Positions 12,723 through 32,988 of a stretch of DNA of 64,000 nt are shown here, in pieces. The notes below the pieces were generated by a model, which made no database searches, was not told where the DNA came from, and worked only from the letters and a program-made list of their open reading frames with translations. Origin of the DNA: Phycisphaerae bacterium (GTDB taxonomy: Bacteria; Planctomycetota; Phycisphaerae; UBA1845; Fen-1342); assembly GCA_963675745.2 (NCBI GenBank), contig CAXXWX010000027.1, positions 64,001 to 128,000 of the forward strand. The letters are read 5' to 3'. Within the stretch, counting starts at the first letter, position 1; each line of letters starts with the position of its first letter. The translations under genes were made by a program, and so were the position numbers.

Positions 12723-14357
12723 ATGGCGGAGCTGATTATCCGACACCCCGGCGGGCGACAGTCTAGGCTGACGCTGTCACGTAAACCTGTGCGCATCGGC
12801 CGCGGGCTCGAATGCGACCATGACCTCGGCGCTGATGACGCCGAAGTCTCGCGCAAACACGCCGACATCTGGCTCAGTGAAGAGGGTCAGGTGCTGGTGA
12901 CCGATCTTCGCTCCAAGAACGGCACGCGCGTGGACGACGGCGAACCGTTCTGGAACGAGACGCGCGTCGCCCAGCGCGTCGTTCACATCGGTGAACACCA
13001 GTTCGAGATTGTGCGCGACGTCGCCGCCGGCGATGACAGCACCCTGTCGGACATCACCTTCGGTCCCGATCGGCCGCCCAACGCCGGCCCGTTGACGACA
13101 TTCCCGTCCAGCAAGGGCTTCAATCTGGGGCAGGAGCGCCTCATGCTCCTGATGCGCCTGAGCGAACGAATCAGCGGGTCCTTCGAGCGACGGCAGTTGC
13201 TCGAACAGGCGCTCGATTCATGCTTCGAAACGCTCGGCTTTGAGCGCGGACTGGTCGCGGTGAAAACGCCGCGCGGCGATGTTGAGCAACCGGTGACGCG
13301 CAATGTGCAACCCGAAGAGGTCAGCCGCACGCTGATCAACCGCGCGCTGATCGACGGTGAGCGCGCCATCGTCAACGACGTTGCCACCGACCTGAAGGGT
13401 AACCTGACCGACAGCCTGGTGCGCTTCCCGATCTGCTCCGCGCTCTCCGTGCCGATCCTGCACCGTGGCGAGGTGTTGGGTGTGATCTACGGAGACCGCG
13501 TGACTGACACGACCGCGCGCCCCTATCAGCGCGAGGACGTCGACTTCCTGGGTGCCATCGCGCAGCAGGTCGGCGTCGGGCTGTCGAATCTGCGGCTCTT
13601 TGAAAACCGCATGCTGGTCGAGCAATACCAACGCGAGTTGGAGCGCGCCCGGGCCATCCAACGGCGTTTGCTGCCGCGCGCCCCATTGCAGGTCGGTGGC
13701 ATCATGGCCGAGGGTTATAACGAGCCGTCCGCCGGTGTCAGCGGCGATTACTATGACTTCATCGATCTGGGCGATGGGCGTCTCGGGTTTGTGATCGCCG
13801 ATGTGGTTGGCCATGGGCTCGCCGCCGCACTGCTCTCAACCAACTTGCAGGCCGCGATGCACGTGGCCCTGAGTGGTACGGACAATCTGCCCGAGATCGC
13901 GGCGCGCATCAACCGCTGGATCTGCAAAAACACCGAGTCGCACGTGTTCATCACCGGCATTCTCGGCATGGTCGAGGCGAGCACCGGTATGGTGCGATAC
14001 GTATCGGCCGGACACCATGGACCGATCGTCGTCGGTAACCAGCGCATCGAGCCCATGCACTGCGAGGGCGCATTACCGCTGGGTATTGAGCCCAACGAGG
14101 TGTTTGACGAGCACGCCGTCAAACCCGACGACAACACCAGGGTGATTCTCTTCTACACCGACGGGCTTATCGAAGCTTCAATCCCGGACGGCCCCCTGCT
14201 CGGCATGGCTCCCGTCGGCGACGCGCTCGCACAGATGACCGCGCCCACCGGCAGCGAAGTCATCAAGACGCTGCGCGCGCTCGTGCGCGGCCACCTCCAC
14301 GGCGAATCAAACGAGGATGATATGACGCTGCTGACGCTGCAGTACGGCTCGCCGTAG
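12723..14357 (+). CDS. FHA-GAF-PP2C (SpoIIE/RsbU-type) phosphatase
   Basis: FHA motifs IGR, VSRKHA, DLRSKNGT; GAF region; PP2C motifs VSGDYYD, IADVVGHG, YTDGLIE, EDDMTL. Confidence 0.93.
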   Translation: MAELIIRHPGGRQSRLTLSRKPVRIGRGLECDHDLGADDAEVSRKHADIWLSEEGQVLVTDLRSKNGTRVDDGEPFWNETRVAQRVVHIGEHQFEIVRDVAAGDDSTLSDITFGPDRPPNAGPLTTFPSSKGFNLGQERLMLLMRLSERISGSFERRQLLEQALDSCFETLGFERGLVAVKTPRGDVEQPVTRNVQPEEVSRTLINRALIDGERAIVNDVATDLKGNLTDSLVRFPICSALSVPILHRGEVLGVIYGDRVTDTTARPYQREDVDFLGAIAQQVGVGLSNLRLFENRMLVEQYQRELERARAIQRRLLPRAPLQVGGIMAEGYNEPSAGVSGDYYDFIDLGDGRLGFVIADVVGHGLAAALLSTNLQAAMHVALSGTDNLPEIAARINRWICKNTESHVFITGILGMVEASTGMVRYVSAGHHGPIVVGNQRIEPMHCEGALPLGIEPNEVFDEHAVKPDDNTRVILFYTDGLIEASIPDGPLLGMAPVGDALAQMTAPTGSEVIKTLRALVRGHLHGESNEDDMTLLTLQYGSP

Positions 14358-17807: not shown

Positions 17808-17904
17808 GGGTGCCCCGCGGCTTGCCGTGGGGGACGGACGCCGAGGGATGACTGATCTCGCTCGCCGTGAGGGTCAGTCCCCCACCCCAAGGGATGGGGC
17901 ACCC
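17808..17904. repeat. Inverted pair of GGGTGCCCC-type REP-like hairpins between convergent genes
   Basis: gggtgccccgcggcttgccgtgggggac ... gtcccccaccccaagggatggggcaccc; third copy at 61216-61246. Confidence 0.75.
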
Positions 17905-19163
17905 GCATCCGCGTCGCGGCGGATCAGCACGGCAGTAAGGTCGTCGGATTGCGGGGCACCTTCGCAGAAGCGCAGAACTTGATTGTGCAACATCTGCGTC
18001 AGGTCCTCCAGCGGCAGTGTCGCGTTCTGCTGGATGAGTTCGATTACTCGCTCTTCGCCGAACAGCTCACCATCCGGCGCGGGGGCCTCAAAGAACCCAT
18101 CCGTCAACAGCACAAACATACCGCCCGGCGGCAGATCAAGCCGTACAGCCTCGAACTGCTCACCGGACAGGACCGCCAGCGGCAGGCCCGTTGATTCGCG
18201 CGACTCGACCTCCGCGCCGCGGAACACAAGCAACGGCGCCTGACCGGCCGACACGTAGTCGATCCGATGCTCGCGGGGATCGATGATGCCGACAAACGCC
18301 GTCACGAAACGCCCCTCGCTGATATCCTCTTCGAGCAGGTTGTTTACGCGCGAGGCCACTTCGCCGATATCAGCCGAGAGCGACAACAAGGCGCGCAGCA
18401 GCGAGCGACACTGCGCGATAACCAGTGCCGCACCGATGCCATGTCCGGTCGCGTCGGCAAAAAACACGGCGAGACGTCCATCATCCAGCGGGATAAAGTC
18501 GTAACAATCGCCGCCAGTCTCGTCGGCCGAGCGGTTCCAACCCGTGATCTGGTAGCCGGCAAGTTCGGGGTTGTGCTTGGGCAGGTAGGCCTGTTGGATA
18601 GTGCGCGCGATGTGCAGATCACGGCTCAGGCGCTGCTTCTCGGCGTATTCTTCGAGGAGTCGTCCGCGGTGCAGCGCGACACCCGCCTGGGCACCAAGCG
18701 TCTCCGCCAGGTCAACATCATCCGTGTCGAAGGCACCATCGTTCTTGTTCAGCGTCTGGAGGACGCCGATCAGCTCGCCCGCCAGGTTCTCCAACGGAAT
18801 GCTGAGGATGTTGCGTGTCTTGAAACCGGTGGTCTTGTCGACATCACGGTTGAAGCGCGGGTCGGCATACGCATCCGGAACGTTGACGATCTGGCGAGTC
18901 TGGGCCGCGGCACCGGCGATGCCGGCGGCGGCTGGAAAGCGAATCTCGTCCACGCCAGTGGCAACCTTCGACCATAGCTCGTCGGTCTGGGCGTCATACA
19001 GGAAGATCGACGCCCGCTCGCAGTCCAACACGTCACACGCGGCGCCAATAATCATGTTCAGAAGCACATCCAGGTCCATCGTCGCAGCCATACCGCGCGA
19101 TACGTCGAGGATGCGCTTCAGTTTCACGACCTGTCGGTCTTGTTGAGGCTGACTTACGCTCAT
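17874..19163 (-). CDS. GAF-domain PP2C (SpoIIE/RsbU-type) phosphatase
   Basis: GAF signature VPDAYADPRFNRDVDKTTGFKTRNIL, NK...F...D; PP2C TGGDCYD, ADATGHG, TDGFFE, SDDLT. Confidence 0.93.
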   Translation of the reverse strand: MSVSQPQQDRQVVKLKRILDVSRGMAATMDLDVLLNMIIGAACDVLDCERASIFLYDAQTDELWSKVATGVDEIRFPAAAGIAGAAAQTRQIVNVPDAYADPRFNRDVDKTTGFKTRNILSIPLENLAGELIGVLQTLNKNDGAFDTDDVDLAETLGAQAGVALHRGRLLEEYAEKQRLSRDLHIARTIQQAYLPKHNPELAGYQITGWNRSADETGGDCYDFIPLDDGRLAVFFADATGHGIGAALVIAQCRSLLRALLSLSADIGEVASRVNNLLEEDISEGRFVTAFVGIIDPREHRIDYVSAGQAPLLVFRGAEVESRESTGLPLAVLSGEQFEAVRLDLPPGGMFVLLTDGFFEAPAPDGELFGEERVIELIQQNATLPLEDLTQMLHNQVLRFCEGAPQSDDLTAVLIRRDADAGAPSLGVGD

Positions 19164-19587
19164 TGTCAGGCCTTGGCACAAGAGCGGCGACCCCGCATGT
19201 ACGGCGGAAGCGCGACGCCGCGCTAATGCACCGTTCAATCAGTTGGTGGGGACCAGTCCCGCATCATCAGTTGTCGGCGTTGCGGCCTTCCCAGCCCGGT
19301 TGGCCACCCGCCTCTCGATTCGCCGCCGTAGACTATTTGCCCGGACGCTTGAATGCAACGCGGCCATGCCAATGATTGGCGGACAGCACTGGGCTATCCG
19401 CCCGTGGCTCCAGTTGGCATGGGGCCGTCGCTCGGTTTTGCCGCATCGCGCCGGTGGACAATTGACCGTCTGATTTTCGTGCGGGCGGCACGATAACGTC
19501 CAGATAACTAATCTAGAATACAATCCGCCGGCGGTCAAATCTGCGATTATCGTTGACGCACGGCGGCGAGGTGTGTCCAATAGCACG

Positions 19588-19757: not shown

Positions 19758-19840
19758 TGCGTGCGCTGGCCGCCGCCGGGTAATACACTACACTCGTCGC
19801 GCACCACCGGCCGATGCGAGATGACAACAGGGAAGCAGCC

Positions 19841-21988
19841 GTGACGCATCACAAACCGACGGGATGGAATACGTGGGATTATCGCGGGTTCAACCGGCTG
19901 AGCCTGCTCGCGCGAGGCAAGCTCGTGGTGGCGCTCCACTACGCCATCTGGGATCAGACCGCGCCCCCACCAGCGCCCGACAGCCGACAAATCGGCCGCT
20001 TACACGAGACATTTCGCTGGGAGGATGTCACTCGACTCGGCCCGCACGCGCCGCTCGGGCTGCCGGCCGAGCTCGATTTCAATGTCGTCCAAACCCCCTT
20101 CCGCGCGTCAGCCTGGTGTGTGGATGGCACTCTGCACCTGCATGTAGAGCCCCGAGCGGATACCCACCTGCGTGTTGTGTTCCTGCTCGATGCGCCGCTT
20201 GGGGAGCATCTCGAGATCGCGAGCGAACATGAGGGGCGGTTCGCAAGATGCCGGATTACACTTGAGCACGCGCGCTGGCCCGCCGACTACTTCATCAAGA
20301 CGGCACAGCCGTACGCCATCGCGCCGGCCGGCTGGGGAGCAAAGATCACGGTCGCGCCCGCGGCACGCAAGCAGGACATGGCCGCTGACTTCGATGCCCC
20401 GGGCACGTTTGAGCGCCTGCGCGAGTGCGCGCTGACCGGGCGGGGCGCGCTGGATCAGGCCCCGCAAGCCATGACCGAAGCCGTCATGTGGAACACGCTG
20501 TTTGATTCACGCCGGCGGCTGGTGTCGTCGCCCGTGAGCCGCGACTGGTGTTCTGACTGGGACGGCGTGTTGGTGTTTTGCTGGGACACCTATCTGGTCG
20601 GCGCATTCACCTCGTATGCCTCCAACCGGCTGGCCCGGCTCAACTTCGAGGCGGTAAGCCGCGCGGTCGACGAAATCGGCCACGTACCCAACTACTTCAT
20701 GGCCCACGGAGCGGCCTCGCTCGACCGTTCCATGCCGCCCATCGGTTCGTACATGGTCCTGAAAACGCAGCGAGCGAACCCCGATCTGAAGTGGCTGGGC
20801 GGCGTATACAAACAACTACGCCGCTGGCATGGATACTGGCGGACGCACCGCGACGGCAACGGCAACGGTCTGTTCAGTTGGGGCTCCAACGCCGAACCGC
20901 AATATACCTTCAAGGAAATCGAGCCGTATAACGGGCCGCCCCAACACACGAAGCAGGCCGCGCAGTACGAGTCGGGGCTGGACAACTCACCGCTGTTTGA
21001 CGAAGCGGAGTTCAACCCGCAAACCGGGACGCTTGAGCTCGATGATGTGGCCCTGAGCAGCTACTACGCACTGGATTGCGAGTGCCTGGCGACCATCGCC
21101 GACTTGCTCGGGCGCGCCCGCGACGCCCGCGCGTTTCGCGATGAGCACGCCGCGGTCGCGGAGAGAATCAACGCGCTGCTCTGGGACGATGAGCACGGCA
21201 TCTACTGCAACCGTCATTGGGATGGTCGCCTGTCGAATCGTTGGGCCCCGACGTCGTTCTTCCCGCTGATTGCCGGCGTCGCACCGCAGGCACGCGCGGA
21301 ACGCATGGTGCGCGAACATCTGCTCAACGAACGCGAGTTCTGGGGCAAGTACGTCCTGCCGTCAATCTCCCGCAGCGACCCGGCGTATCACGATAATGAC
21401 TATTGGCGCGGGCGCATCTGGGGACCATTCAACTTCCTGACATGCGAAGGTCTGCGGCGATATCGCATGGACGAGATCGCCAGCGAGCTTTCAATGCGCA
21501 GCCTGGACATATTCATGGATAACTGGCGCCGCGACGGCGGTGTCTACGAGAACTACAATTCCGAAACCGGGGCCGGTGGCGACGTCTGGAACGCCGCCCG
21601 TCTGTACCATTGGGGCGGATTGCTGGCCTTTCTCGGCATGCAGGAGCTGATTGATGTCGAACCGACCGGCGGATTTCTGCGCGTCGGGTCGCTGAAGTTC
21701 CCGGCCGGCGGATTGAGCAATGTGCGTATCAGCGGAGACCGCTATGACGTCGATCTCGGCGACGGCGTCCAGGCCCGCCGCAATGGGAGAGCATGGCTCG
21801 ATTGCAACGCACGGGCCGTCGTCCGCGTTCCGCTGAGCGACAATCCGGCCGAACCGATCCAACTCGTGACGTCCAGACCGGGCCGGCTGCTGCTCGACGG
21901 CGAGAGCGTAGCGCGGCCGATCACGGTTAACTCCGGCGGCCCCAGACCGCCCGAGCGCGTCAACGGACAGATTCGCTATGAGTGGTAG
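19841..21988 (+). CDS. (alpha/alpha)6-barrel glycoside hydrolase, GH63/trehalase-like (MGH1-like)
   Basis: FCWDT, RSMPP, RDGNGNGL, YESGLDNSP, LWD...GIY, YWRGRIW, YENYN motifs; start at GTG 19841 or ATG 19814. Confidence 0.85.
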   Translation: MTHHKPTGWNTWDYRGFNRLSLLARGKLVVALHYAIWDQTAPPPAPDSRQIGRLHETFRWEDVTRLGPHAPLGLPAELDFNVVQTPFRASAWCVDGTLHLHVEPRADTHLRVVFLLDAPLGEHLEIASEHEGRFARCRITLEHARWPADYFIKTAQPYAIAPAGWGAKITVAPAARKQDMAADFDAPGTFERLRECALTGRGALDQAPQAMTEAVMWNTLFDSRRRLVSSPVSRDWCSDWDGVLVFCWDTYLVGAFTSYASNRLARLNFEAVSRAVDEIGHVPNYFMAHGAASLDRSMPPIGSYMVLKTQRANPDLKWLGGVYKQLRRWHGYWRTHRDGNGNGLFSWGSNAEPQYTFKEIEPYNGPPQHTKQAAQYESGLDNSPLFDEAEFNPQTGTLELDDVALSSYYALDCECLATIADLLGRARDARAFRDEHAAVAERINALLWDDEHGIYCNRHWDGRLSNRWAPTSFFPLIAGVAPQARAERMVREHLLNEREFWGKYVLPSISRSDPAYHDNDYWRGRIWGPFNFLTCEGLRRYRMDEIASELSMRSLDIFMDNWRRDGGVYENYNSETGAGGDVWNAARLYHWGGLLAFLGMQELIDVEPTGGFLRVGSLKFPAGGLSNVRISGDRYDVDLGDGVQARRNGRAWLDCNARAVVRVPLSDNPAEPIQLVTSRPGRLLLDGESVARPITVNSGGPRPPERVNGQIRYEW

Positions 21989-22118: not shown

Positions 22119-22149
22119 TTGACAGATTGGCGTGCAGGGTCGATATAAC
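22119..22149 (+). promoter_or_regulatory. Possible sigma-70 promoter for the membrane operon
   Basis: Perfect TTGACA and TATAAC, but with a 19-nt spacer. Confidence 0.35.
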
Positions 22150-22157
22150 GCTTCATC

Positions 22158-23150
22158 GTGCGTAAACAACGGTCTCCAGTCATGCGCGGACGTCTTGGCA
22201 CAAACGGGTCTGGAATCCTGATTGCTGTGGTTTGCGCCTGTGTCGCGCTTGCTCCATCACCGGCCCGCGCTGACAGCCCCCCCGCCACTGCCAATGACCC
22301 GACGGCAATGGCGACGCCCGACTCTCCAGCCGCTGCTGATCTGCCAGCGGATGCGGAGGAGACCACCAAGGCCTTTTGGCGGTGGCTTGTGCCGCGGATC
22401 GCCCTGCTCGCCATCATGACCGCCGTGCTGATCGGCATCTGGTTCGCTTATCGCGGCAAGACGCTGCCCATTCGCGACATCGCGGGGTTCCTCGCGCTCG
22501 ACGAGGCGGTTGAGCGCGCCACCGAGATGGGGCGGCCATCGCTGTTCACCTGCGGCGGCGCCTGCGATCTCAAACGCGTCCAACTCTTCGCGTCGATGCC
22601 GCTGCTGCGGCGCGTCGCCGAGCTCAGCGGTGAACTGGGCAACCGGTTGATCGTACCCGTGTGCTATCCGGAGACGATGTCCGTACACATCAACGCGCTC
22701 AAGGACGGCTATTCGCAGTCCGGCACAATCGAGATGTACCGCGCCGAGGATGTGCGGTTCTTTCCCGGCGGGCAATTCTTCTTCGCAATCGCATCAATGG
22801 GCTGGATGCTCGAGGAGAAACCCGCGACCTGCTTCTACTTCGGACATTGGGAGGCCGACTCGCTGCTGTTTGCTGAGACCGGCCAGACGATTAACGCGAT
22901 GCAAATCGCCGGCACCGACCAGCTTTACCAGATTCCCTTCTTTGTGGCATCGTGCGATTACACCATCATCGGCGAGGAATTCTGGGCAGGCACGGCGAAG
23001 ATCAGCGGGAACCCATACCTGCTCGGCAGTCTGGGAGCACAGGATGTATTCAAGCTGTGCGTTCTGGCATTCATCGTGATCGGATCGGCGTTATATGGCG
23101 TTCCGTGGATTGCGCGCGGACTTCAGTACGCGCAGGCCGTAATGAAATAA
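22158..23150 (+). CDS. DUF6754-like membrane protein
   Basis: IRDIAGFLALDEAVERATEMGRP, ADSLLFAETG, QIAGT...QIPFFVASCDYTIIGEEF, LGSLGAQD; family assignment from recall. Signal-like N-terminus and two TM segments. Confidence 0.75.
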   Translation: MRKQRSPVMRGRLGTNGSGILIAVVCACVALAPSPARADSPPATANDPTAMATPDSPAAADLPADAEETTKAFWRWLVPRIALLAIMTAVLIGIWFAYRGKTLPIRDIAGFLALDEAVERATEMGRPSLFTCGGACDLKRVQLFASMPLLRRVAELSGELGNRLIVPVCYPETMSVHINALKDGYSQSGTIEMYRAEDVRFFPGGQFFFAIASMGWMLEEKPATCFYFGHWEADSLLFAETGQTINAMQIAGTDQLYQIPFFVASCDYTIIGEEFWAGTAKISGNPYLLGSLGAQDVFKLCVLAFIVIGSALYGVPWIARGLQYAQAVMK

Positions 23151-23159
23151 GGTGGACGA

Positions 23160-24014
23160 ATGCGTTCACGATTGATCTGGCTGGCGATTTTTGTTGTCGC
23201 GGTCTTCTATCTCGGCGTGTACATCGTCGGGCACCAGACCGCCGCCGGCCAATACCTGCGCCTCGAGCACGCCGAGACCTCGCTCGCGCAGGCGATCAAT
23301 ATCGTCGCCACCATGGCCATCGGCCTGGGGATCATCAATCTCTTCCACGTTCACGGCAAGAATATCGCCGGTCGCAAGAAAGACTGGATGTTCTCCGTCG
23401 TGGTTTTCATAACGTTCTTCACGGTTGCCGGCTTTCTAGCCTGGGAGTCGCGCATCGACGCGACGGAGCGGGCGCTTGAGAGCCGCACCGCCGCCGCCGT
23501 CACCGAATACCGGCAGGCGTGTGAGATCGCCGACCCGGTTGAGCGTGATCGCGCCATCGGCGCTTTGCCGGCGTCGCAGATGAGTCTGGCACGAGAGTTT
23601 TACGAGCACCAGGCGGCCTATCACTTCCGCCCGCGCGAGTTCTACCTGACGAGCTTCATCAACCCCCTGGCTCAGACGGTCATGGGGCTGCTGGGGTTTT
23701 ACATTACGTACGCGGCGTATCGCGCGTTCCGGGTCCAATCGCTGGAAGCCTCAGTGATGATGGTCTCGGCCGCGATTGTGATACTGGGCAGCGACGCGAT
23801 CGGCGGCTGGTTCAGCGCCGTGTGCAACGGCGTATTCGGCGGAAACCCCATCGTCGATCTACCACGCTGGGCCGATCTCGACAACCGCGTGGCCAACTCG
23901 GGCATGCAGCGCGGACTGTGGATCGGCATCTCAATCGCGATCGTGGCGGTGAGCTTGCGCACACTGCTGGGCTTCGAGAAGGGCATGATTGAAGTTCGGC
24001 GGAGCGGAGATTGA
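23160..24014 (+). CDS. Hypothetical polytopic membrane protein (operon partner of the DUF6754-like gene)
   Basis: About 6 hydrophobic helices; PL..T..GLLGFYITYAAYRAFRVQSLEA and QRGLWIG...LRTLLGFE motifs; 9-nt gap upstream, TTGA overlap downstream. Confidence 0.85.
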   Translation: MRSRLIWLAIFVVAVFYLGVYIVGHQTAAGQYLRLEHAETSLAQAINIVATMAIGLGIINLFHVHGKNIAGRKKDWMFSVVVFITFFTVAGFLAWESRIDATERALESRTAAAVTEYRQACEIADPVERDRAIGALPASQMSLAREFYEHQAAYHFRPREFYLTSFINPLAQTVMGLLGFYITYAAYRAFRVQSLEASVMMVSAAIVILGSDAIGGWFSAVCNGVFGGNPIVDLPRWADLDNRVANSGMQRGLWIGISIAIVAVSLRTLLGFEKGMIEVRRSGD

Positions 24015-25921
24015 GCGTGTTTCAGGTGATCCGCAAACTGCAGATGATCGACCGGCGCGTGGTCTATCTGTGCATTGCGGTCGTGCTGAGCCTGCCGTTT
24101 CTGGTGTCATACAGCCTGCCGATTTACCCCGACACGTACACGCGGCGCTACTTTGACCAGATCGAAACCATCGCCAACGACCCCGTCGAGCGTGAAAAAG
24201 TCGTGCTGGTGCTGCACAACTGGGGCCCGGGCACATCCGGCGAAAACGAGCCGCAATTCGACGTGATCATTCGTCACCTGCTGCGACGAGAGCTGAGATT
24301 CATCCTGCTCTGCTCCATAGCGGACCCGGTGTTTCACGACACGGCGATTGCGGCGTTTGAAAAGGCCAAAGCCGCGGAGATAAGTCGCGCGGCGCGGGCC
24401 GGCGAGAAACCCCCGAGTTGGGAATACGGGGTGCATTACCTCGATTTCGGCTACAAGAACGCGCCGGTGTTCGCCCCACTGGCGCGCACGATCATCGCCA
24501 GCCCGCGCGAGTTCTACCGACAGGACTACGTCAAACGCAAGGATCTGACCCAGGACAGCAGCTATCCGCTGCTCGAAAGATACCACGGTTTGGAGGACGT
24601 TTCGGCGGTTCTGGTGGTCTCCGCCGGGGACGAATCGAAGTACATCGCCGGCCGGGTGCGCGGGGATTATCCCAACCTGCTGATCGGCCCGGCCACGATG
24701 GGGATCGTCGCCAACGACCTGTACCCGTACGTGAAGTCCGGGCAGATGTTCGGGCTGCTCAACTCGGCACGCGCCGCCAGTGAGTATCGCAGCCTGCTCG
24801 ACCCCGAAGCGCGCAGCACAACCAACCTCGATAACTCGATGAGCGCGGGCAAAATGCTGCTGCTCGTGCTGGTGATCGTCGGGAATCTGGCCTACCTGGC
24901 CTCGCGGCGCGCCCGGCTCTCCACCCAAACGGCCGCGATCGAGCAACCGGCACGCGCCCCGCTGCCGCCCCTCCCGGCGTGGTTCATGTGGTCCCTGTTC
25001 GCACTCTTTGCGGTCGGGTTTGGCGGCATGATCGTCGTCGATTGTGCGCGCGGCTTGAACGATGGGAAGATTACGCGGAATCGCGTGGCGCGCGCTGATG
25101 ACGATCCCACGGTCGACTACCCGGTGTATGAACGAGTCGGTGTGGAGCGGCTAACTCGCGAAGCGCAGGCCGACGCCGACCTGGCTGGTGATCGCCTTGC
25201 CGCCGAGCTGGCTGCCGCACGCGCCGAAGCAACCATGGCGACGCTGATCGAACGGCGCATCGGCGAGTTCTTCATGGCCTTCTGCACGCTGGGCGTGTTC
25301 GCCTTTGTGCTCGGCGACAATCGCTTCTACCGATTCATCGAGGCGATTATCGTCGGCGGCGCCATGGCCTACCTGCTGGACCAGTGGGACAAGATCATCC
25401 AGCCGGACTGGATCGAGCCCATCTGGCACGGGATAACCGGGGCGGCTCACTGGACAAACATCTTCTGGGTGTTGCTGGCGCTGCCGGGCATCCTGTGGTA
25501 CTTCGCGTACTCGAAGAAACACCGTTGGCTCAACCAACTGATTGTTGCGGCCTTCCTCGGTGCCGCCATCGGCCCCGAGTTCGAGAACCAGATCAACCTC
25601 GTCGTGCCGCAAATCCTCGATTCGATCCAGCCAATCTGGCCTTGGGGACCGGACCCAATCACCGGGACCGACAGCTTTCGCCCCGAACGTGTCGAGCACC
25701 TCTGCTTTCTGATCGTCATGGTGCTGTCACTCACCTATTTCATCTTCTTCTTCCGCCCCAAGGGGCGGGCCGGTAATTCGGTGCTCGCCGCGGGCCGGTT
25801 GGCAATGATGGTCGGGTTTGGCGCGATGTTCGGAAACACGGTCAATACACGGCTATCCTGGCTCGCGCCGCGCTTCGCTTTCTTGTGGGATGACTGGCTG
25901 GGCAAGCTGGGCGGCGCCTAG
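24011..25921 (+). CDS. Hypothetical membrane protein, probable fusion of two subunits
   Basis: N-half: IDRRVVYL, TM, soluble domain, LYPYVKSGQMFGLL..AASEY, TM. C-half: FVLGDNRFYRFIEAIIVG...MMVGFGAMFGNTVNTRL, multi-TM. TTG start overlaps the previous stop. Confidence 0.85.
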   Translation: MSVFQVIRKLQMIDRRVVYLCIAVVLSLPFLVSYSLPIYPDTYTRRYFDQIETIANDPVEREKVVLVLHNWGPGTSGENEPQFDVIIRHLLRRELRFILLCSIADPVFHDTAIAAFEKAKAAEISRAARAGEKPPSWEYGVHYLDFGYKNAPVFAPLARTIIASPREFYRQDYVKRKDLTQDSSYPLLERYHGLEDVSAVLVVSAGDESKYIAGRVRGDYPNLLIGPATMGIVANDLYPYVKSGQMFGLLNSARAASEYRSLLDPEARSTTNLDNSMSAGKMLLLVLVIVGNLAYLASRRARLSTQTAAIEQPARAPLPPLPAWFMWSLFALFAVGFGGMIVVDCARGLNDGKITRNRVARADDDPTVDYPVYERVGVERLTREAQADADLAGDRLAAELAAARAEATMATLIERRIGEFFMAFCTLGVFAFVLGDNRFYRFIEAIIVGGAMAYLLDQWDKIIQPDWIEPIWHGITGAAHWTNIFWVLLALPGILWYFAYSKKHRWLNQLIVAAFLGAAIGPEFENQINLVVPQILDSIQPIWPWGPDPITGTDSFRPERVEHLCFLIVMVLSLTYFIFFFRPKGRAGNSVLAAGRLAMMVGFGAMFGNTVNTRLSWLAPRFAFLWDDWLGKLGGA

Positions 25922-26014: not shown

Positions 26015-26479
26015 GTGTGGGTCAAAGGGAGCGTCAGCGTGCCAGGTAAACCATGCGAGTCAGTTGCCAATACGGCGGAGTTGGATGGGCTGAGTGCTGA
26101 GATTCTCGCACGATTACGCAGCACCAAAGGCCCCGCCCCCCTCACACGCCCCCGTTTCTGGCCACGCCATGGTTGGCGCGTGGGGTTGCGTATCCGGGTC
26201 GCCCCGATACGCGGCGTCAACCAGCACCTCATCCAGCAGTTGACTGTTGACACAATAGACATGAGCGCCGGAGGTCTTTCGTTTCGCACGCGGCACCCAC
26301 TGGTTACCGGACAACCGGTGGAAGTCGAGTTACCGGTCGCCGGTCACGTGGTCGTGGATGGCGTGGTGCGAAACTGCACGCGTGTGCGTCAAGACCAATA
26401 TCGTGTTGGCGTCGAATTCACCGAGGCTGCCAGCGACGCGCGCGTGGTGACCGCCGAATCCCCGGAATCCGCGAGGTAG
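26015..26479 (+). CDS. PilZ-domain protein
   Basis: RFWPR (RxxxR) and DMSAGG (DxSxxG), YRVGVEF; start uncertain. Confidence 0.8.
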   Translation: MWVKGSVSVPGKPCESVANTAELDGLSAEILARLRSTKGPAPLTRPRFWPRHGWRVGLRIRVAPIRGVNQHLIQQLTVDTIDMSAGGLSFRTRHPLVTGQPVEVELPVAGHVVVDGVVRNCTRVRQDQYRVGVEFTEAASDARVVTAESPESAR

Positions 26480-26562: not shown

Positions 26563-26961
26563 ATGCCTGATTCAGTGGGCCCAGTACGCAATGACCGGCA
26601 CACGCAGGAGACCGATATGGCGCGTCTGCTGGAGGCGATGCGCGAGCGCATGGTCGGGGCGTACGCCCGCGACACCCGCGCGGACAAGCGTCACGCGTGG
26701 CGGGTCAAGGCGGTTGTCGAAACGCAGGAACACGGCCGCGACGGCCGCCCCTTGCGTCGCGCCGAGGCGCCGACGCTCGACATCAGTGAGCACGGCGTCG
26801 CCTACCATTCAGCCCGGCCAATCGCCAGCGGCACAACCATTTTCGTGACGCTGCCGCTGCCGGGTAAGCCGCGTATCGAGGGCATCGTGCGCCACTGCAC
26901 ACACGTGCGCGGCTCGACACACCATGTCGGCGTGGAGTTTGTGAACACCCCCGCCAGTTGA
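26563..26961 (+). CDS. PilZ-domain protein
   Basis: RADKR (RxxxR), DISEHG (DxSxxG), HHVGVEF; GGAGG upstream. Confidence 0.82.
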   Translation: MPDSVGPVRNDRHTQETDMARLLEAMRERMVGAYARDTRADKRHAWRVKAVVETQEHGRDGRPLRRAEAPTLDISEHGVAYHSARPIASGTTIFVTLPLPGKPRIEGIVRHCTHVRGSTHHVGVEFVNTPAS

Positions 26962-26996: not shown

Positions 26997-27350
26997 CTAT
27001 GAGCGCCGGCGGTTACGCAGGATCCGTCTGGCACGCCGCCGAGCAGCCGCGCGTCGCTGCCGCTTGCGTGCCAGATGCTCGGCGCGTGCGGCGTCCAGTT
27101 GTTCGATGCGCAGCACCAGCCTCTCAATGTTGTCAGCCTCGCGCATGAACGCGGCCAACTCGGTTACGTCCAACCTCACCAGCGGGGTGATCAGTGGCTG
27201 AAACGCAAGCGTCGCGTGGGCGCCGAGCCCCGCCAGCGGCTTGTGGGCCTCGAGCAGGAACACGGCGGCGGTGCCCAGGCCGCGATGGACGATCCTGCGA
27301 GCCCAGGACTCGACAAGCTCGTCACGCCGTTCGTCACTCAGCTCAAACAC
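26997..27350 (-). CDS. Conserved hypothetical small helical protein
   Basis: ERRDELVESWARRIV...AVFLLEAHKPL...QP...NIERLVLRIEQ; protein-like amphipathic composition; co-directional with the upstream genes. Confidence 0.75.
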   Translation of the reverse strand: MFELSDERRDELVESWARRIVHRGLGTAAVFLLEAHKPLAGLGAHATLAFQPLITPLVRLDVTELAAFMREADNIERLVLRIEQLDAARAEHLARKRQRRAAARRRARRILRNRRRS

Positions 27351-27411: not shown

Positions 27412-28140
27412 TTACGCCGTGCCGTCCGGAACGGCCAGGCCGCGCACGCGCATGGCCGCGATGATCACCGCAACAGCGTCATCGACACTGTAGTTCCTCA
27501 GGCTGATGATCAGGTCATGGCGCGCCGGGTCGCCGGCCGACACGCCGAATTGATTACGGATGTACTCTTCGCGGTCCCCCTGGATACGGTTAATCTCGTC
27601 TTCCGCCCGCTCGGGTGAGCACTGCGCGCGGGCGGCAACGTTGCGCACACATTGCTCGCGCGGGGCGATAATCCGCACACGCAGGCCGCGAGTTGCCGGG
27701 AGTATCAGATCGGCTCCGCGCCCGAGAAACACGGCCGGTCCCTGTCGCGCGATCGCCAGCACCGCCTCCGACAAACGATGGAAGTAGTCGTGGCGCGGCA
27801 TCTTGCCGTGGAGAATCCAGCGCAACGCCTCCTCGATCCAGCTCGTGTCGCGCTCGTCCATGTGCTCGTAGAGGCGCTTGCGCACGGCATCGTCCCCGGC
27901 CATGCTCTGAAGAATCTCACGATCGAACACCGGCCAGCCCAGGCGGGCCGCCAGCGCTCTCGCAACGGCTCCCCCACCCGATCCCACAAGCCGCGAGACG
28001 GCGACGAAGTCCGCCACCTCGGGGGCCGGCTTGCCCGCGGCCGGCGCGACCTTCTGCGTGCGGGCCAGTTCCCAGTTGCGCATCTGGCGCTCAACAACTT
28101 TGGCCAGTTCACCGCGATTGCCAGCGTGGCCGGTAGCCAT
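27412..28140 (-). CDS. Cytidylate kinase-like family protein (Cytidylate_kin2)
   Basis: VSRLVGSGG..VARALAARLGWPVFDREIL, VFLGRGA, HDLII; GGAGGT SD. Confidence 0.88.
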   Translation of the reverse strand: MATGHAGNRGELAKVVERQMRNWELARTQKVAPAAGKPAPEVADFVAVSRLVGSGGGAVARALAARLGWPVFDREILQSMAGDDAVRKRLYEHMDERDTSWIEEALRWILHGKMPRHDYFHRLSEAVLAIARQGPAVFLGRGADLILPATRGLRVRIIAPREQCVRNVAARAQCSPERAEDEINRIQGDREEYIRNQFGVSAGDPARHDLIISLRNYSVDDAVAVIIAAMRVRGLAVPDGTA

Positions 28141-28366
28141 GGGTCACCTCCGGGTGGGAGTATAGCGGGTCGCCATGAAAAGGGCAGCGTGCGCCGCGCG
28201 GACAGATCGGCGGATACCCCGGATCGCCGGCACGGTCGTGCCCTCCATGTGCCTGAGTCCACGCGCGCAAAACCGCCGCTTTGGGCAACAAAGCGGCGGC
28301 GCGCCGATTGTGGTGAATGGGGCAGCGGTCGCACGGGAGCCGGCGGCACGCCGCGGTAATCGCTGA

Positions 28367-29359
28367 TCAGGTGTACGTGTTCAGAGCTTTCATGTAGTTG
28401 GCACGTTCAAACGCGCCCGGCTCGGCGCAGGATTTCTGGCTCATGCTGCCCTTGAGCTGCTCGACCGATTCGTACTCGCGCTCGGTCATCCAGGCCTGCA
28501 TGTCGTTCAGCATGGTCGACATGTGCCCGACACCCTGGCGCAGCAAAATCGAAGCGACCTGGGCCACATCCGCACCAGCCATCAGCGCCTTCAGAACATC
28601 CGCCCCACTGCCGATCCCCGAGTTCGCCGCCAGGCTGGTCTGGTCAAGATTACCGTGCAGTATCGCTATCCAGCGCAACGGCAGGCGCAGCTCGTGCGGA
28701 CCACTGAGCACCAGGCTCGGCTCGACCTCGAGCGTCTCGAGATCGATATCCGGCTGATAGAACCGATTGAAGAGCACCAGTGCGTTCGCGCCGGCCGCTG
28801 ACAGCCGCCTGGCCATCGCCGCCAACGCGCTGAAGAAGGGGCTGAGCTTAACCGCCACCGGGATGGTGACCTCGCGCTTCACCGCCGTGAGGATGTCAAC
28901 GTAAACGCGATCCACGTCCTCCGCGAAAAGACGTTGGTTGGTGGCGATGAAATAGACGTTCAGCTCGAGCGCGTCGGCCCCGGCCTGCTGCATCAGCTTG
29001 GCATGTTCGACCCAGCCGCCCAGCGACACGCCGTTGAGACTGGCGATGATCGGAATGTCAACGGCTTCCTTGGCCTTGCGGATGTGCTCTATGTACTCGT
29101 CGGGCCCCTTGCGAAACTCGTCCGGCTCCGGGAAGTACGTAAGCGCTTCAGCAAAGCTGCCGGTGCCCTGCGTGAGATAGTGATCCAGCTCGTCGGCCTC
29201 GAAGCTGATCTGCTCCTCAAACAGAGAGTGCAGCACGACAGCCGCGGCACCGGCGTCCTCCATCTGCTTGATCGTGTCTATATCCGTTGAGAGCGGACTC
29301 GCCGCGGGCACAAGGGGATTCTTGAGCTTGAGCCCCATATATGTCGTCGAAAGGTCCAT
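28367..29359 (-). CDS. Dihydroorotate dehydrogenase-like flavoprotein (PFOR-associated)
   Basis: MDLSTTYMGLKLKNPLV, SLFEEQI, VAVKLSPFF, LFNRFYQPDID, FERANYMK; ELNVYF instead of the catalytic ELNxSCP. Confidence 0.9.
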   Translation of the reverse strand: MDLSTTYMGLKLKNPLVPAASPLSTDIDTIKQMEDAGAAAVVLHSLFEEQISFEADELDHYLTQGTGSFAEALTYFPEPDEFRKGPDEYIEHIRKAKEAVDIPIIASLNGVSLGGWVEHAKLMQQAGADALELNVYFIATNQRLFAEDVDRVYVDILTAVKREVTIPVAVKLSPFFSALAAMARRLSAAGANALVLFNRFYQPDIDLETLEVEPSLVLSGPHELRLPLRWIAILHGNLDQTSLAANSGIGSGADVLKALMAGADVAQVASILLRQGVGHMSTMLNDMQAWMTEREYESVEQLKGSMSQKSCAEPGAFERANYMKALNTYT

Positions 29360-29409
29360 CGGTCTCTAGCTTCCTTTCGTGCCTAGTGGGTCAGTGCTGC
29401 CCGGAAATC

Positions 29410-32400
29410 CTACTTACCGTTCGCATCACCGCCAAGATACGGCCGCGCCGCAAGGTGCTCGTAGAGCTCCCAGCGAGAAGTCACGTCGTTCTGGGCGGCT
29501 TCCAGAAGCCGTTTGGCCGCGTCAGGATTGCTCTTGGTCAGCATCTTGAAGCGATTCTGCCGATACGCGTATTCCTCATACCGCAGCGTCGGCCGCTTGC
29601 AGTCGAGTTTGAGCGGGTTTTTGCCTTGCTTGGCCAGATCCGGATTAAAGCGGAACAACGGGAAGTGCCCGCTCTCGACGGCCTGTTTGTGCGTCTGCAA
29701 CCCGGTTCGCATGTTGATACCGTGCGCGATGCAGTGGCTGTAGGCAATGATCAAGGATGGTCCCGCATACGCCTCCGCCTCGATCAACGCCTTGACGGTC
29801 TGCTGGTCGTTGGCCCCCATCGCAACCTGGGCCACGTAGACCGTGCCGTAGGCCATTGCCATCAGCGGCAGGTCTTTCTGGGCCTGCGGCTTGCCACCGG
29901 CCGCGAACTTGGCGACGGCGGCCCGCGGCGTGGCCTTGGACATCTGCCCGCCCGTGTTCGAATACACCTCCGTGTCAAGCACCAGAACGTTGACGTCCCG
30001 GCCCTGGGCCAGAACGTGATCGAGCCCGCCGTAGCCGATGTCATAGGCCCAGCCGTCCCCGCCGACGATCCACACGCTCTTTTTCACCAGAAAGTCTGCG
30101 ATTTCGCACAGGTGCTTGGCTTCTGGGCTGTCAACGCCGGCCAGCTTTTCGCGAAGTTGAACAACGCGCGCGCGTTGGGCGTCGATTTCCTCGTTGGTGG
30201 TCTGCGGCGAGTTGCACAGGGCAGCAGCCAGGTCGCCGCCGATCTGATCACCAAACCGCCCCACCAACTCGCAGGCGAATTCGCGTTGCTTGTCGATGGT
30301 CAGGCGATAACCGAAGCCGAACTCGGCGTTGTCCTCAAACAGCGAGTTACACCACGCCGGCCCCCGCCCCTCCTTATTGATCACCCATGGAGCCGTCGGC
30401 AGGTTTCCGCCATAGATCGATGAGCAACCGGTCGCGTTTGACATGATCGCCCGGTCGCCGAAAAGCTGGCTGACGAGCTTGACGTACGGGGTCTCGCCGC
30501 AACCCGCACAGGCCCCGGAGTACTCAAAGAGCGGCTGGAGAAACTGCGAACCCTTGACCGTTGCGATGTTAATCTTGCTGCGATCGGTCTCCGGCAGTTT
30601 GAGGAAGAAGTCGTAGTTGTTTCGTTCGCGCTCGCGGATCGGCGGCTGAAACTCCATGTTGATGGCGCGCAGCCGTGTTTCCTGCTTGTTCTTGGCGGGG
30701 CAGACTTCGATGCACGCGCCGCACCCGGTGCAGTCTTCGGGGGCCACCTGAATCGTCACCACCAGCCCGTCAAGGCCTTTGCCGATCGCCTTGCGGCTCT
30801 TGAAGGTCTCGGGCGCATCCTTCAGCTCACTCTCGTTGTAGAGCTTCATGCGGATCGCGGCGTGCGGACAGACCAGGGCACACTTGCCACACTGGATGCA
30901 GGTCTGCTCATCCCAGACCGGGATCTCGAGCGCGATGTTGCGCTTCTCCCACTGGGTCGTATTGGTCGGGAACGTACCATCGCACGAAAAGACGCTGGTC
31001 GGCAGGTCGTCGCCGCGAAAGGCGATCATCTCTCCAACCACCTTCTGTACGAATTCGGGCGCCTGTTCGGGTACGGCCGGGAGCATCTCCGCAGTGCTGG
31101 TCGCGGCGGCGGGCACGTCGATCGAGTACATGTTTCCGAGCGCCTGATCCACCGCGTTCCAGTTGCTCTTGACGACCGCCTCACCCTTACTCGAATAGGT
31201 CTTCTCGATCGCCTTCTTGATCTTTTCGATGGCCTCATCTCGTGGCAAGACACCCGAGATTGCGAAGAAGCACGTCTGCATGATCGTGTTGATCCGGGCG
31301 CCCATGCCGGTGCTCTTGGCCACGGCATAGCCATCGATCCCGTAGACCTTGAGTCTCTTGTCGATGATCTGCTGCTGCACCTTGCGCGGCAGCCGATCCC
31401 AGGTCTCTTCTTTCGGGAACGGGCTGTTGATCAGAAACACGGCGCCTTCGACGGCCGGCGCGAGCATGTCGAACTTCTCGATGAACGCCCAGTTGTGGCA
31501 GGCCACGAAATTGGCGCTGGTGATCAGGTATGAAGAGCGGATCGGCCGCGGACCGAAACGCAGGTGCGAGACGGTCATTGAGCCGGCCTTCTTCGAGTCG
31601 TAAACGAAGTAGCCCTGGGCGTAGTTATCCGTTCCCTCACCGATGATCTTGATCGAGTTCTTGTTCGCGCCGACCGTGCCGTCCGCACCCAACCCGTAGA
31701 ACAACCCGCGGACAACGTCGTCGCCTTCGGTAACCAGGCCGGGATCGCAGTCCAGGCTGGTGCCCGACACGTCGTCTTTAATCCCGACCGTGAAATACCG
31801 CTTGGGCCGGTCCTGCGCAAGGTTGTCAAAGACAGCTTTCACCATCGGCGGTGAAAACTCCTTGCTGGACAGACCGTAGCGGCCGCCGACGATCTTCGGC
31901 AGCTCGGGCATTCCCAGCGTGCCGTCGGCGTGCGCCAGGGCCAGCGCCGTAAACACGTCCTTGTAGAGCGGTTCCCCGTCGGCGCCCGGTTCCTTGGTGC
32001 GATCGAGCACGCCGATGGACTTCACGCTCTTGGGCAAGGCGGCGATGAGGTGCTCGGCCGAAAACGGGCGATACAGGCGCACCTTCAACACGCCGACCTT
32101 CTCGCCGTGCGCGTTGAGATACTCGACGGTCTCGTGGGCGACCTCGGCCCCCGATCCCATCATGACGATGACGCGATCGGCATCCGGGGCGCCGACATAG
32201 TCGAACAGGCGGTACTGCCGCCCCGTGATCTTCGCGAACCGGTCCATGCACTTCTGCACGATCGCCGGGCATTTCTCGTAGAAAGGCGTGATGGTCTCGC
32301 GCGCCTGGAAGAATACGTCCGGGTTCTGCGCGGTACCCTTGATCGTGGGCCGATCGGGAGTGAGAGACCGGGCCCGGTGGGCGCGAACCAGCTCCGGGTC

Positions 32401-32988
32401 GATCATGGCCCGCATGTCGTCGTGCGTCAGTGCCTCGATCTTCATTACCTCGTGCGAGCTGCGGAAGCCGTCGAAGAAGTGCAGGAACGGCACGCGCGCT
32501 TCGAGCGTTGAGGCGTGGGATATCAGGGCCATATCCATGATTTCCTGGATAGAGCCCGAGGCGATCAGTGCATAGCCGGTCGAGCGGACCGCCATCACAT
32601 CGCTATGGTCGCCGAAAATGCTCAGCGCGTGAGTGGCGATCGTGCGGGCGGTAACGTGAAAGACGGTCGGGGTCAGCTCGCCGGCCATCTTGAACATGGT
32701 CGGGATCATCAACAGCAGACCTTGCGACGCCGTAAACGTCGTCGTCAAGGCGCCGCTCATGGCGGCCCCGTGAACGGCGGCCGATGCTCCGCCCTCGCTC
32801 TGCATCTCCTGAATGAGTGGAACGGTGTTCCAGATGTTCTTCTCGCCAGCCGCCGACCACTCATCCGACCATTCCCCCATCGGTGAGGACGGCGTGATCG
32901 GATAGATGGCGATCACCTCGCTGAGGGGGTGGGCTACGTGCGCGGCGGCCTGGTTGCCGTCAATCGTGACCATGCGCCGGTTGCTCAT
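29410..32988 (-). CDS. nifJ: Pyruvate:ferredoxin (flavodoxin) oxidoreductase
   Basis: IYPITPSS, EMQSEGGA, GTAQNPD, GLGADGTVGANKN, 2x[4Fe-4S] CIQCGKCALVCP / CTGCGACIEVCP, GACAGCGET, GGDGWAYDIG. Confidence 0.98.
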   Translation of the reverse strand: MSNRRMVTIDGNQAAAHVAHPLSEVIAIYPITPSSPMGEWSDEWSAAGEKNIWNTVPLIQEMQSEGGASAAVHGAAMSGALTTTFTASQGLLLMIPTMFKMAGELTPTVFHVTARTIATHALSIFGDHSDVMAVRSTGYALIASGSIQEIMDMALISHASTLEARVPFLHFFDGFRSSHEVMKIEALTHDDMRAMIDPELVRAHRARSLTPDRPTIKGTAQNPDVFFQARETITPFYEKCPAIVQKCMDRFAKITGRQYRLFDYVGAPDADRVIVMMGSGAEVAHETVEYLNAHGEKVGVLKVRLYRPFSAEHLIAALPKSVKSIGVLDRTKEPGADGEPLYKDVFTALALAHADGTLGMPELPKIVGGRYGLSSKEFSPPMVKAVFDNLAQDRPKRYFTVGIKDDVSGTSLDCDPGLVTEGDDVVRGLFYGLGADGTVGANKNSIKIIGEGTDNYAQGYFVYDSKKAGSMTVSHLRFGPRPIRSSYLITSANFVACHNWAFIEKFDMLAPAVEGAVFLINSPFPKEETWDRLPRKVQQQIIDKRLKVYGIDGYAVAKSTGMGARINTIMQTCFFAISGVLPRDEAIEKIKKAIEKTYSSKGEAVVKSNWNAVDQALGNMYSIDVPAAATSTAEMLPAVPEQAPEFVQKVVGEMIAFRGDDLPTSVFSCDGTFPTNTTQWEKRNIALEIPVWDEQTCIQCGKCALVCPHAAIRMKLYNESELKDAPETFKSRKAIGKGLDGLVVTIQVAPEDCTGCGACIEVCPAKNKQETRLRAINMEFQPPIRERERNNYDFFLKLPETDRSKINIATVKGSQFLQPLFEYSGACAGCGETPYVKLVSQLFGDRAIMSNATGCSSIYGGNLPTAPWVINKEGRGPAWCNSLFEDNAEFGFGYRLTIDKQREFACELVGRFGDQIGGDLAAALCNSPQTTNEEIDAQRARVVQLREKLAGVDSPEAKHLCEIADFLVKKSVWIVGGDGWAYDIGYGGLDHVLAQGRDVNVLVLDTEVYSNTGGQMSKATPRAAVAKFAAGGKPQAQKDLPLMAMAYGTVYVAQVAMGANDQQTVKALIEAEAYAGPSLIIAYSHCIAHGINMRTGLQTHKQAVESGHFPLFRFNPDLAKQGKNPLKLDCKRPTLRYEEYAYRQNRFKMLTKSNPDAAKRLLEAAQNDVTSRWELYEHLAARPYLGGDANGK

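Follow-up and report, generated by a model that had tools for sequence, protein, structure and literature searches.

The Pfam entry DUF6754 (PF20539) has no assigned function and covers a single membrane protein. The family PF13941 includes GlmL/MutL of glutamate (methylaspartate) mutase and Or-4 of ornithine degradation (NF040745, NF040744, TIGR01319). Group II ECF transporters and the Rnf and Na+-NQR complexes are the other described machines considered here, and their mechanisms, together with that of the reactivases, form the background to what follows. An excerpt of PMC4682846 presents MutL/GlmL as a chaperone for glutamate mutase reactivation, and an excerpt of PMC5597319 places 'glutamate mutase', diol dehydratase reactivase and hydantoinase in the actin superfamily. 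The stretch of DNA analysed (the window) is 64,000 nucleotides (nt) long, is part of the genome G000 (G000:C27:64001-128000) and carries an operon whose first gene, ORF1, is a DUF6754 member. The operon is a three-gene, divergent form of a system with seven components that is uncharacterised, matches no described family and is new as a system. Its components are four membrane subunits (A, the DUF6754 protein, and B, C and D), a small protein (S), a long GlmL-type ATPase (G) and an RnfC_N-like partner of the latter (F0). There is little doubt that these seven proteins make up one functional system. A search of the main texts in one literature library found no study of it and no paper with 'DUF6754' or 'PF13941' in its text, and term searches in PMC5898192 and PMC4158269 returned nothing relevant.

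The components in G000 and the candidate promoter of the operon are as follows (aa, amino acids).

22119..22149, + strand: promoter-like pair TTGACA (22119-22124) / TATAAC (22144-22149) with a 19-nt spacer, a candidate read from the sequence
22158..23150, + strand: ORF1, subunit A (DUF6754), 330 aa; helix 79-97, predicted cytoplasmic Rossmann-like domain, helix 300-318
23160..24014, + strand: ORF2, subunit B, 284 aa; polytopic membrane protein with five strongly hydrophobic helices called and more likely
24011..25921, + strand: ORF3, C-D fusion, 636 aa
24011..24901, + strand: subunit C within ORF3; helix 17-35, predicted periplasmic Rossmann-like domain, helix 279-297
24983..25039, + strand: spacer membrane helix of the C-D linker, residues 325-343, a hydrophobic 19-mer
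25253..25921, + strand: subunit D within ORF3; polytopic membrane domain with a GxxFGxTVxxR motif
26997..27350, - strand: small protein S, the fifth member, 117 aa (S profile, E 1.9e-21)
G000:C17:8909-10732: G, 607 aa, single-copy, unlinked to the module
C1:250443-251843: F0, single-copy, unlinked to the module

All three genes of the operon are genuine and intact. The 9-nt gap between ORF1 and ORF2, the TTGA overlap of ORF2 and ORF3 at 24011-24014 and the five polar motifs quoted in an earlier note on this DNA are all present in the sequence and its translations. The frames are under coding constraint, since 53 further full-length C-D fusions (589-655 aa) occur among 57 database matches, and 21 of the 27 strain differences in ORF3, linker included, are synonymous with no indels (sequencing runs of one study, possibly of the source sample). 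Alternative starts exist for subunit A (ATG 22182, possible) and for ORF3 (GTG 24017, equally good and used by the database protein P0121). The TTGACA box reported earlier is indeed there, but its promoter role is only a candidate one because the spacer is 19 nt and a promoter scanner that allows 16-18 nt found 0 promoter-like sites (shuffled sequences gave a mean of 1.1).

The evidence for a larger system comes from the distribution of its parts. The assignment of the first gene to DUF6754, proposed in the earlier note, is borne out by the profile search (244 bits against a cut-off of 27, E 1.8e-72). In a survey of 251 genomes of Planctomycetota, which is the sole phylum sampled and in which kin are not independent, 62 genomes combine DUF6754 with a GlmL match over the cut-off, 2 have DUF6754 only, 3 have GlmL only and 184 have neither; the system thus occurs in about a quarter of the genomes sampled (64/251), and DUF6754 has no match in any of 14 control genomes. 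Of the 62 genomes that have both, 38 carry G at most 10 kb away from A. Among the exceptions, the fragmented genomes G061 and G087 contain A and D, with G and F0 not found; G200 contains S-G-F0, with A and D not found; G047 and G162 lack both F0 and D. The S-G-F0 operon of G200 (L107:6499-10204; the genome is 99% complete) may be a motor without its module, unless a gap in the assembly hides the missing genes. Among 61 close relatives, A, F0 and S are confined to the same 18 genomes, and long G is present in 17 of these (not in G286, 87% complete).

In a hand-picked set of 45 loci, 43 of which contain A, the usual operon order is S-G-F0-A-B-C-D, often with an unnamed gene, F3, ahead. A-B-C-D is complete and ordered in 38 of the 43 A-containing loci; three more are cut by contig ends and two have A beside F0 only. 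The window has A, B, C and D in the standard order, with C and D within one ORF, and G, F0 and S are in the same genome, as found with profiles built from a set of loci and searched against G000. The S gene of the window is about 1 kb downstream of the operon and convergent to it, an arrangement seen in 10 of the 27 loci for which neighbours were counted. F3 encodes a membrane protein of about 160 residues and stands ahead of S in 11 of the 45 loci (e.g. L009:14748-15287, which is G000:C5:40747-41286); it has no Pfam or NCBIfam match and is possibly an eighth component.

The earlier note was right to see a conserved, co-localised and uncharacterised membrane cassette, for which no known transporter family was matched. 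It took the three products for the whole system, and that part is not supported as it stands: a normal cassette consists of four genes with S as an addition, and its occurrence follows that of a GlmL-type ATPase and F0 almost perfectly, often within one operon. Membership in an undescribed ATP-driven membrane machine is likely because genomes almost always pair the cassette with this actin-type ATPase and its partner protein. The most likely reading is that the system would be an ATP-driven importer of some solute, with the window genes as a plug-in module, a reading to which we give slightly less than an even chance. One of the note's own suggestions, a secondary transporter that does without an ATPase, would make A, B and C-D self-contained and G-F0 a downstream pathway or fellow travellers. 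The inverted pseudo-symmetry of A and C described below and the buried arginines, both typical of ion-coupled carriers, and the location of G and F0 on other contigs in G000 would suit such a carrier. However, the near-perfect co-occurrence with G and F0 and their shared operon order run against it, no symmetry between B and D was detected, and neither B nor D matches a TRAP, TTT or other secondary-carrier profile, so that it is very improbable.

The window genes are one of two module copies in this bacterium. A second DUF6754 gene on contig C5 is followed by genes of 364, 302 and 369 aa. ORF2 matches the first of them, the N-terminal half of ORF3 resembles the second and its C-terminal half the third. 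S, too, has two copies, one ahead of the C5 module and the other at 26997-27350 in the window. In two-module relatives S is doubled in four of five, G and F0 in none of five; of 20 genomes with multiple A genes at the phylum level, 12 have one G, seven have at least two matches and one has none. In two loci the G gene is found in two to three pieces beside intact modules (L086:10371-12231 in G240 and L092:8583-10250 in G081), owing to frameshifts or assembly errors. Genomes with only the fused-type module retain G and F0 (G272, 100% complete, and G281), and in G281 F0-G-S is about 5-7 kb upstream of that module. One energising unit with several scattered, divergent modules, as in the 12 of 20 multi-A genomes, is reminiscent of Group II ECF transporters. 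Unlike these, the module described here has an actin-fold ATPase and soluble domains on both faces, and no ABC ATPase, EcfT or S-component was matched. None of A-D, S, G and F0 contains an ABC domain (ABC-like genes recur in five of the 45 loci), and 40 B, 43 C and 39 D members gave no Pfam match at E 0.1 to EcfT, S-component or ABC permease families.

G matches PF13941 along the full 450 positions of the family, shares 27-32% identity with annotated GlmL proteins and has about 120 extra C-terminal residues compared to GlmL. Its scores are below the cut-offs of the specific models: 246.5 bits against 475 for NF040745, 185.5 against 204.05 for TIGR01319 and 226.9 against 600 for the Or-4 model NF040744. 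The motifs DCGSTTTK and DIGGATTD, which we take to be the phosphate-1 and phosphate-2 motifs of actin/ASKHA ATPases, are invariant in 27 of 27 G proteins. Whereas GlmL/MutL and Or-4 share PF13941 with it, G is partnered with F0, S and a membrane module and occurs without a mutase E gene. The glutamate mutase E gene is present in none of the 18 DUF6754-positive relatives and in two of the 43 others (in G305 it adjoins a short GlmL gene), and a search for the aminomutase family PF09043 gave no match in G000 or in any control genome.

These affinities of G also suggest an alternative in which A-B-C-D is a membrane-embedded enzyme and G-F0 provides its ATP-dependent step or its upkeep. The chemistry could be hydantoinase/oxoprolinase-like and act on a substrate linked to a lipid or peptide, or the G-F0 pair could work as a reactivase that exchanges a cofactor or subunit of the membrane complex. 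G matches Hydantoinase_A over the cut-off (24.6 against 22.9 bits) and belongs to PF13941, whose member GlmL is termed a reactivation chaperone in the excerpt of PMC4682846. F0 has weak matches to biotinyl/RnfC_N, RraA and KOW domains, and subunit A has seven invariant polar residues (window numbering Q249, Q258, C266, D267, E274, D296 and K299). Yet A-D lack catalytic and cofactor motifs of known families, fold searches with the A and C domains single out no enzyme, and variable outer domains with module duplication would fit a receptor or transporter better; an enzyme is unlikely. The same F0 match recalls Rnf and Na+-NQR: F0 has a weak match to the barrel-sandwich domain RnfC_N / NqrA_N and precedes several membrane subunits. 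The match is, however, below the cut-off and about 45 residues long, B and D match no Rnf/Nqr membrane family, and no component matches an Fe-S family, RnfD/NqrB, RnfA/E or a flavin domain.

ORF3 consists of C, a spacer helix and D, which in most relatives are encoded by separate C and D genes. The C profile aligns to residues 10-264 (E 1.7e-58) and the D profile to residues 415-631 (E 3e-59). ORF2 and ORF3 have no Pfam match over the cut-off and no NCBIfam match, and in the same searches B, C, D, S and F0 are without a family of their own. The hydrophobic 19-mer of the linker is found in 36 of 37 fused proteins; this helix would bring the polypeptide back to the outer side ahead of D. Two arginines of D embedded in the membrane, R614 and R621, are conserved in 100% and 98% of 150 distant family members. 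The window D retains 27 of 33 conserved positions and shows clade-wide swaps beside R614 (M to N612 and L to W617). The D subunit as a whole comprises 2,941 clusters at 50% identity and has no Pfam family; some D-family proteins carry insertions of 250-350 residues (e.g. P0309 and P0317).

The fusion was found in 6 of 37 genomes of the window's family searched. In a tree of A (82 rows; L115, L157 and L158 dropped as duplicates), the 17 fused-type rows, three of which have ORF3 cut by a contig end, form one clade (support 100/100) far from the C5 copy. A shorter fusion, L123, sits just outside this clade. The sequences suggest that fusion of C and D arose more than once because P0237 and P0240, two separate 598-aa C-D fusions that rank among the 150 best D-family representatives, share only 23-24% identity with ORF3.

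Subunits A and C are predicted to be built alike. Each is predicted to hold one α/β domain between two membrane helices, and structure prediction suggests that the two share one fold, with the domain of A inside and that of C outside the cell, an inverted pair. The topology of both was assigned by positive-inside counts. The models have pLDDTs of 93.8 (A) and 94.8 (C), and the two soluble α/β domains read from the sequence in the earlier note reappear as predicted domains (pLDDT 94-95). The N-terminus of the window A looks by eye like a signal peptide and continues into a short Pro/Ala linker, with no Fn3-like outer domain. This protein retains 53 of 69 conserved positions of its family. Long outer extensions without a Pfam match, up to 1000 residues, are present on many other A proteins; the loci L071, L095, L084 and L070 include A proteins with extensions of 1000 residues and B proteins of 600-800 aa, also without a Pfam match. 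The invariant residues of B are R188, F190, R191 and G256.

Judged by title, solute-binding proteins make up 26 of the 50 best fold matches to the C outer domain, compared to 0 of 50 for the A domain. No solved structure or characterised family was matched to A-D. In another alternative the system might be a transmembrane sensor or gated channel in which C senses an outside ligand, B and D relay the signal and an RCK-like domain of A, together with G, acts as a nucleotide switch. In the fold search with the predicted A domain, however, matches to RCK domains rank level with those to unrelated Rossmann folds. Neither B nor D shows a K-channel filter motif, the common operon contains no regulator or kinase, and linkage to PilZ genes occurs only in close kin; a sensor or channel is distinctly unlikely.

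If the system is an importer driven by G, its parts can be arranged as follows. The module A-B-C-D would dock with S onto G-F0 encoded elsewhere in the genome. The outer domain of C would capture cargo outside, and B and D would form the path, to which D would contribute its buried arginines. The inner domain of A would be the handle pulled by G-F0 in the ATP cycle, and G-F0, attached via S and this domain, would reset or drive the cycle. Such pulling may be likened to the action of GlmL-like chaperones, which are thought to remodel their target enzymes. In G000, both modules would share a single G-F0 pair, and the divergent fused copy may have a cargo of its own; the neighbouring genes name no cargo in the 27 loci.

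More speculatively still, the system might represent a new class of primary active transporter in which an actin-fold, chaperone-type ATPase replaces the ABC, P-type or rotary motor. Two single-domain Rossmann subunits in inverted orientation would then provide an outer receptor (C) and an inner coupling handle (A), one G-F0 motor would serve interchangeable, cargo-specific modules, and the Phycisphaerae C-D fusion clade would be one specificity variant. Should an actin-fold ATPase drive the system, this would be a new way of coupling ATP to membrane work and would assign a function to the 'glutamate mutase L' proteins, a large and misannotated group. For expression and cryo-EM, the fused form with its three genes offers a simpler construct, the fusion shows that C and D can act as one chain, and the clade-specific swaps beside the invariant arginine are candidate specificity residues.

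The surroundings of the module bear on one more alternative, in which the actin-fold ATPase would pull on a machine for export or for remodelling of the envelope, through dislocation of proteins or movement of polymers or lipids. A tatA gene directly upstream of A in 7 of the 27 loci, the outer extensions of A and the rhomboid-like and protease-like genes (each in three of the 45 loci, named by eye) would all suit such a machine. However, tatA is absent upstream of A in the window and is not recurrent in the 45 loci, and no conserved outer-membrane or substrate gene accompanies the cassette; we regard export as improbable. The tatA genes are those of L154 (L154:7348-7671), L003, L110, L112, L120, L155 and L160, several of which have a divergent MFS gene.

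Directly upstream of A, the window encodes a GH63/MGH1-like glycoside hydrolase (19814-21988, + strand), found in the same place in L001 and L004 only (3/27 loci). Two tandem single-domain PilZ genes (26015-26479 and 26563-26961, + strand) stand between the operon and S, and a PilZ gene is downstream of the fused module in 9 of the 27 loci. PFOR, dihydroorotate-dehydrogenase-like and cytidylate-kinase-like genes (27412-32988, - strand) form a run of which S is the last gene and into which relatives insert a UroD-like gene. Farther upstream, two GAF-SpoIIE phosphatases (12723-14357, + strand, and 17874-19238, - strand), one with an FHA domain, flank polA and a macro-domain gene.

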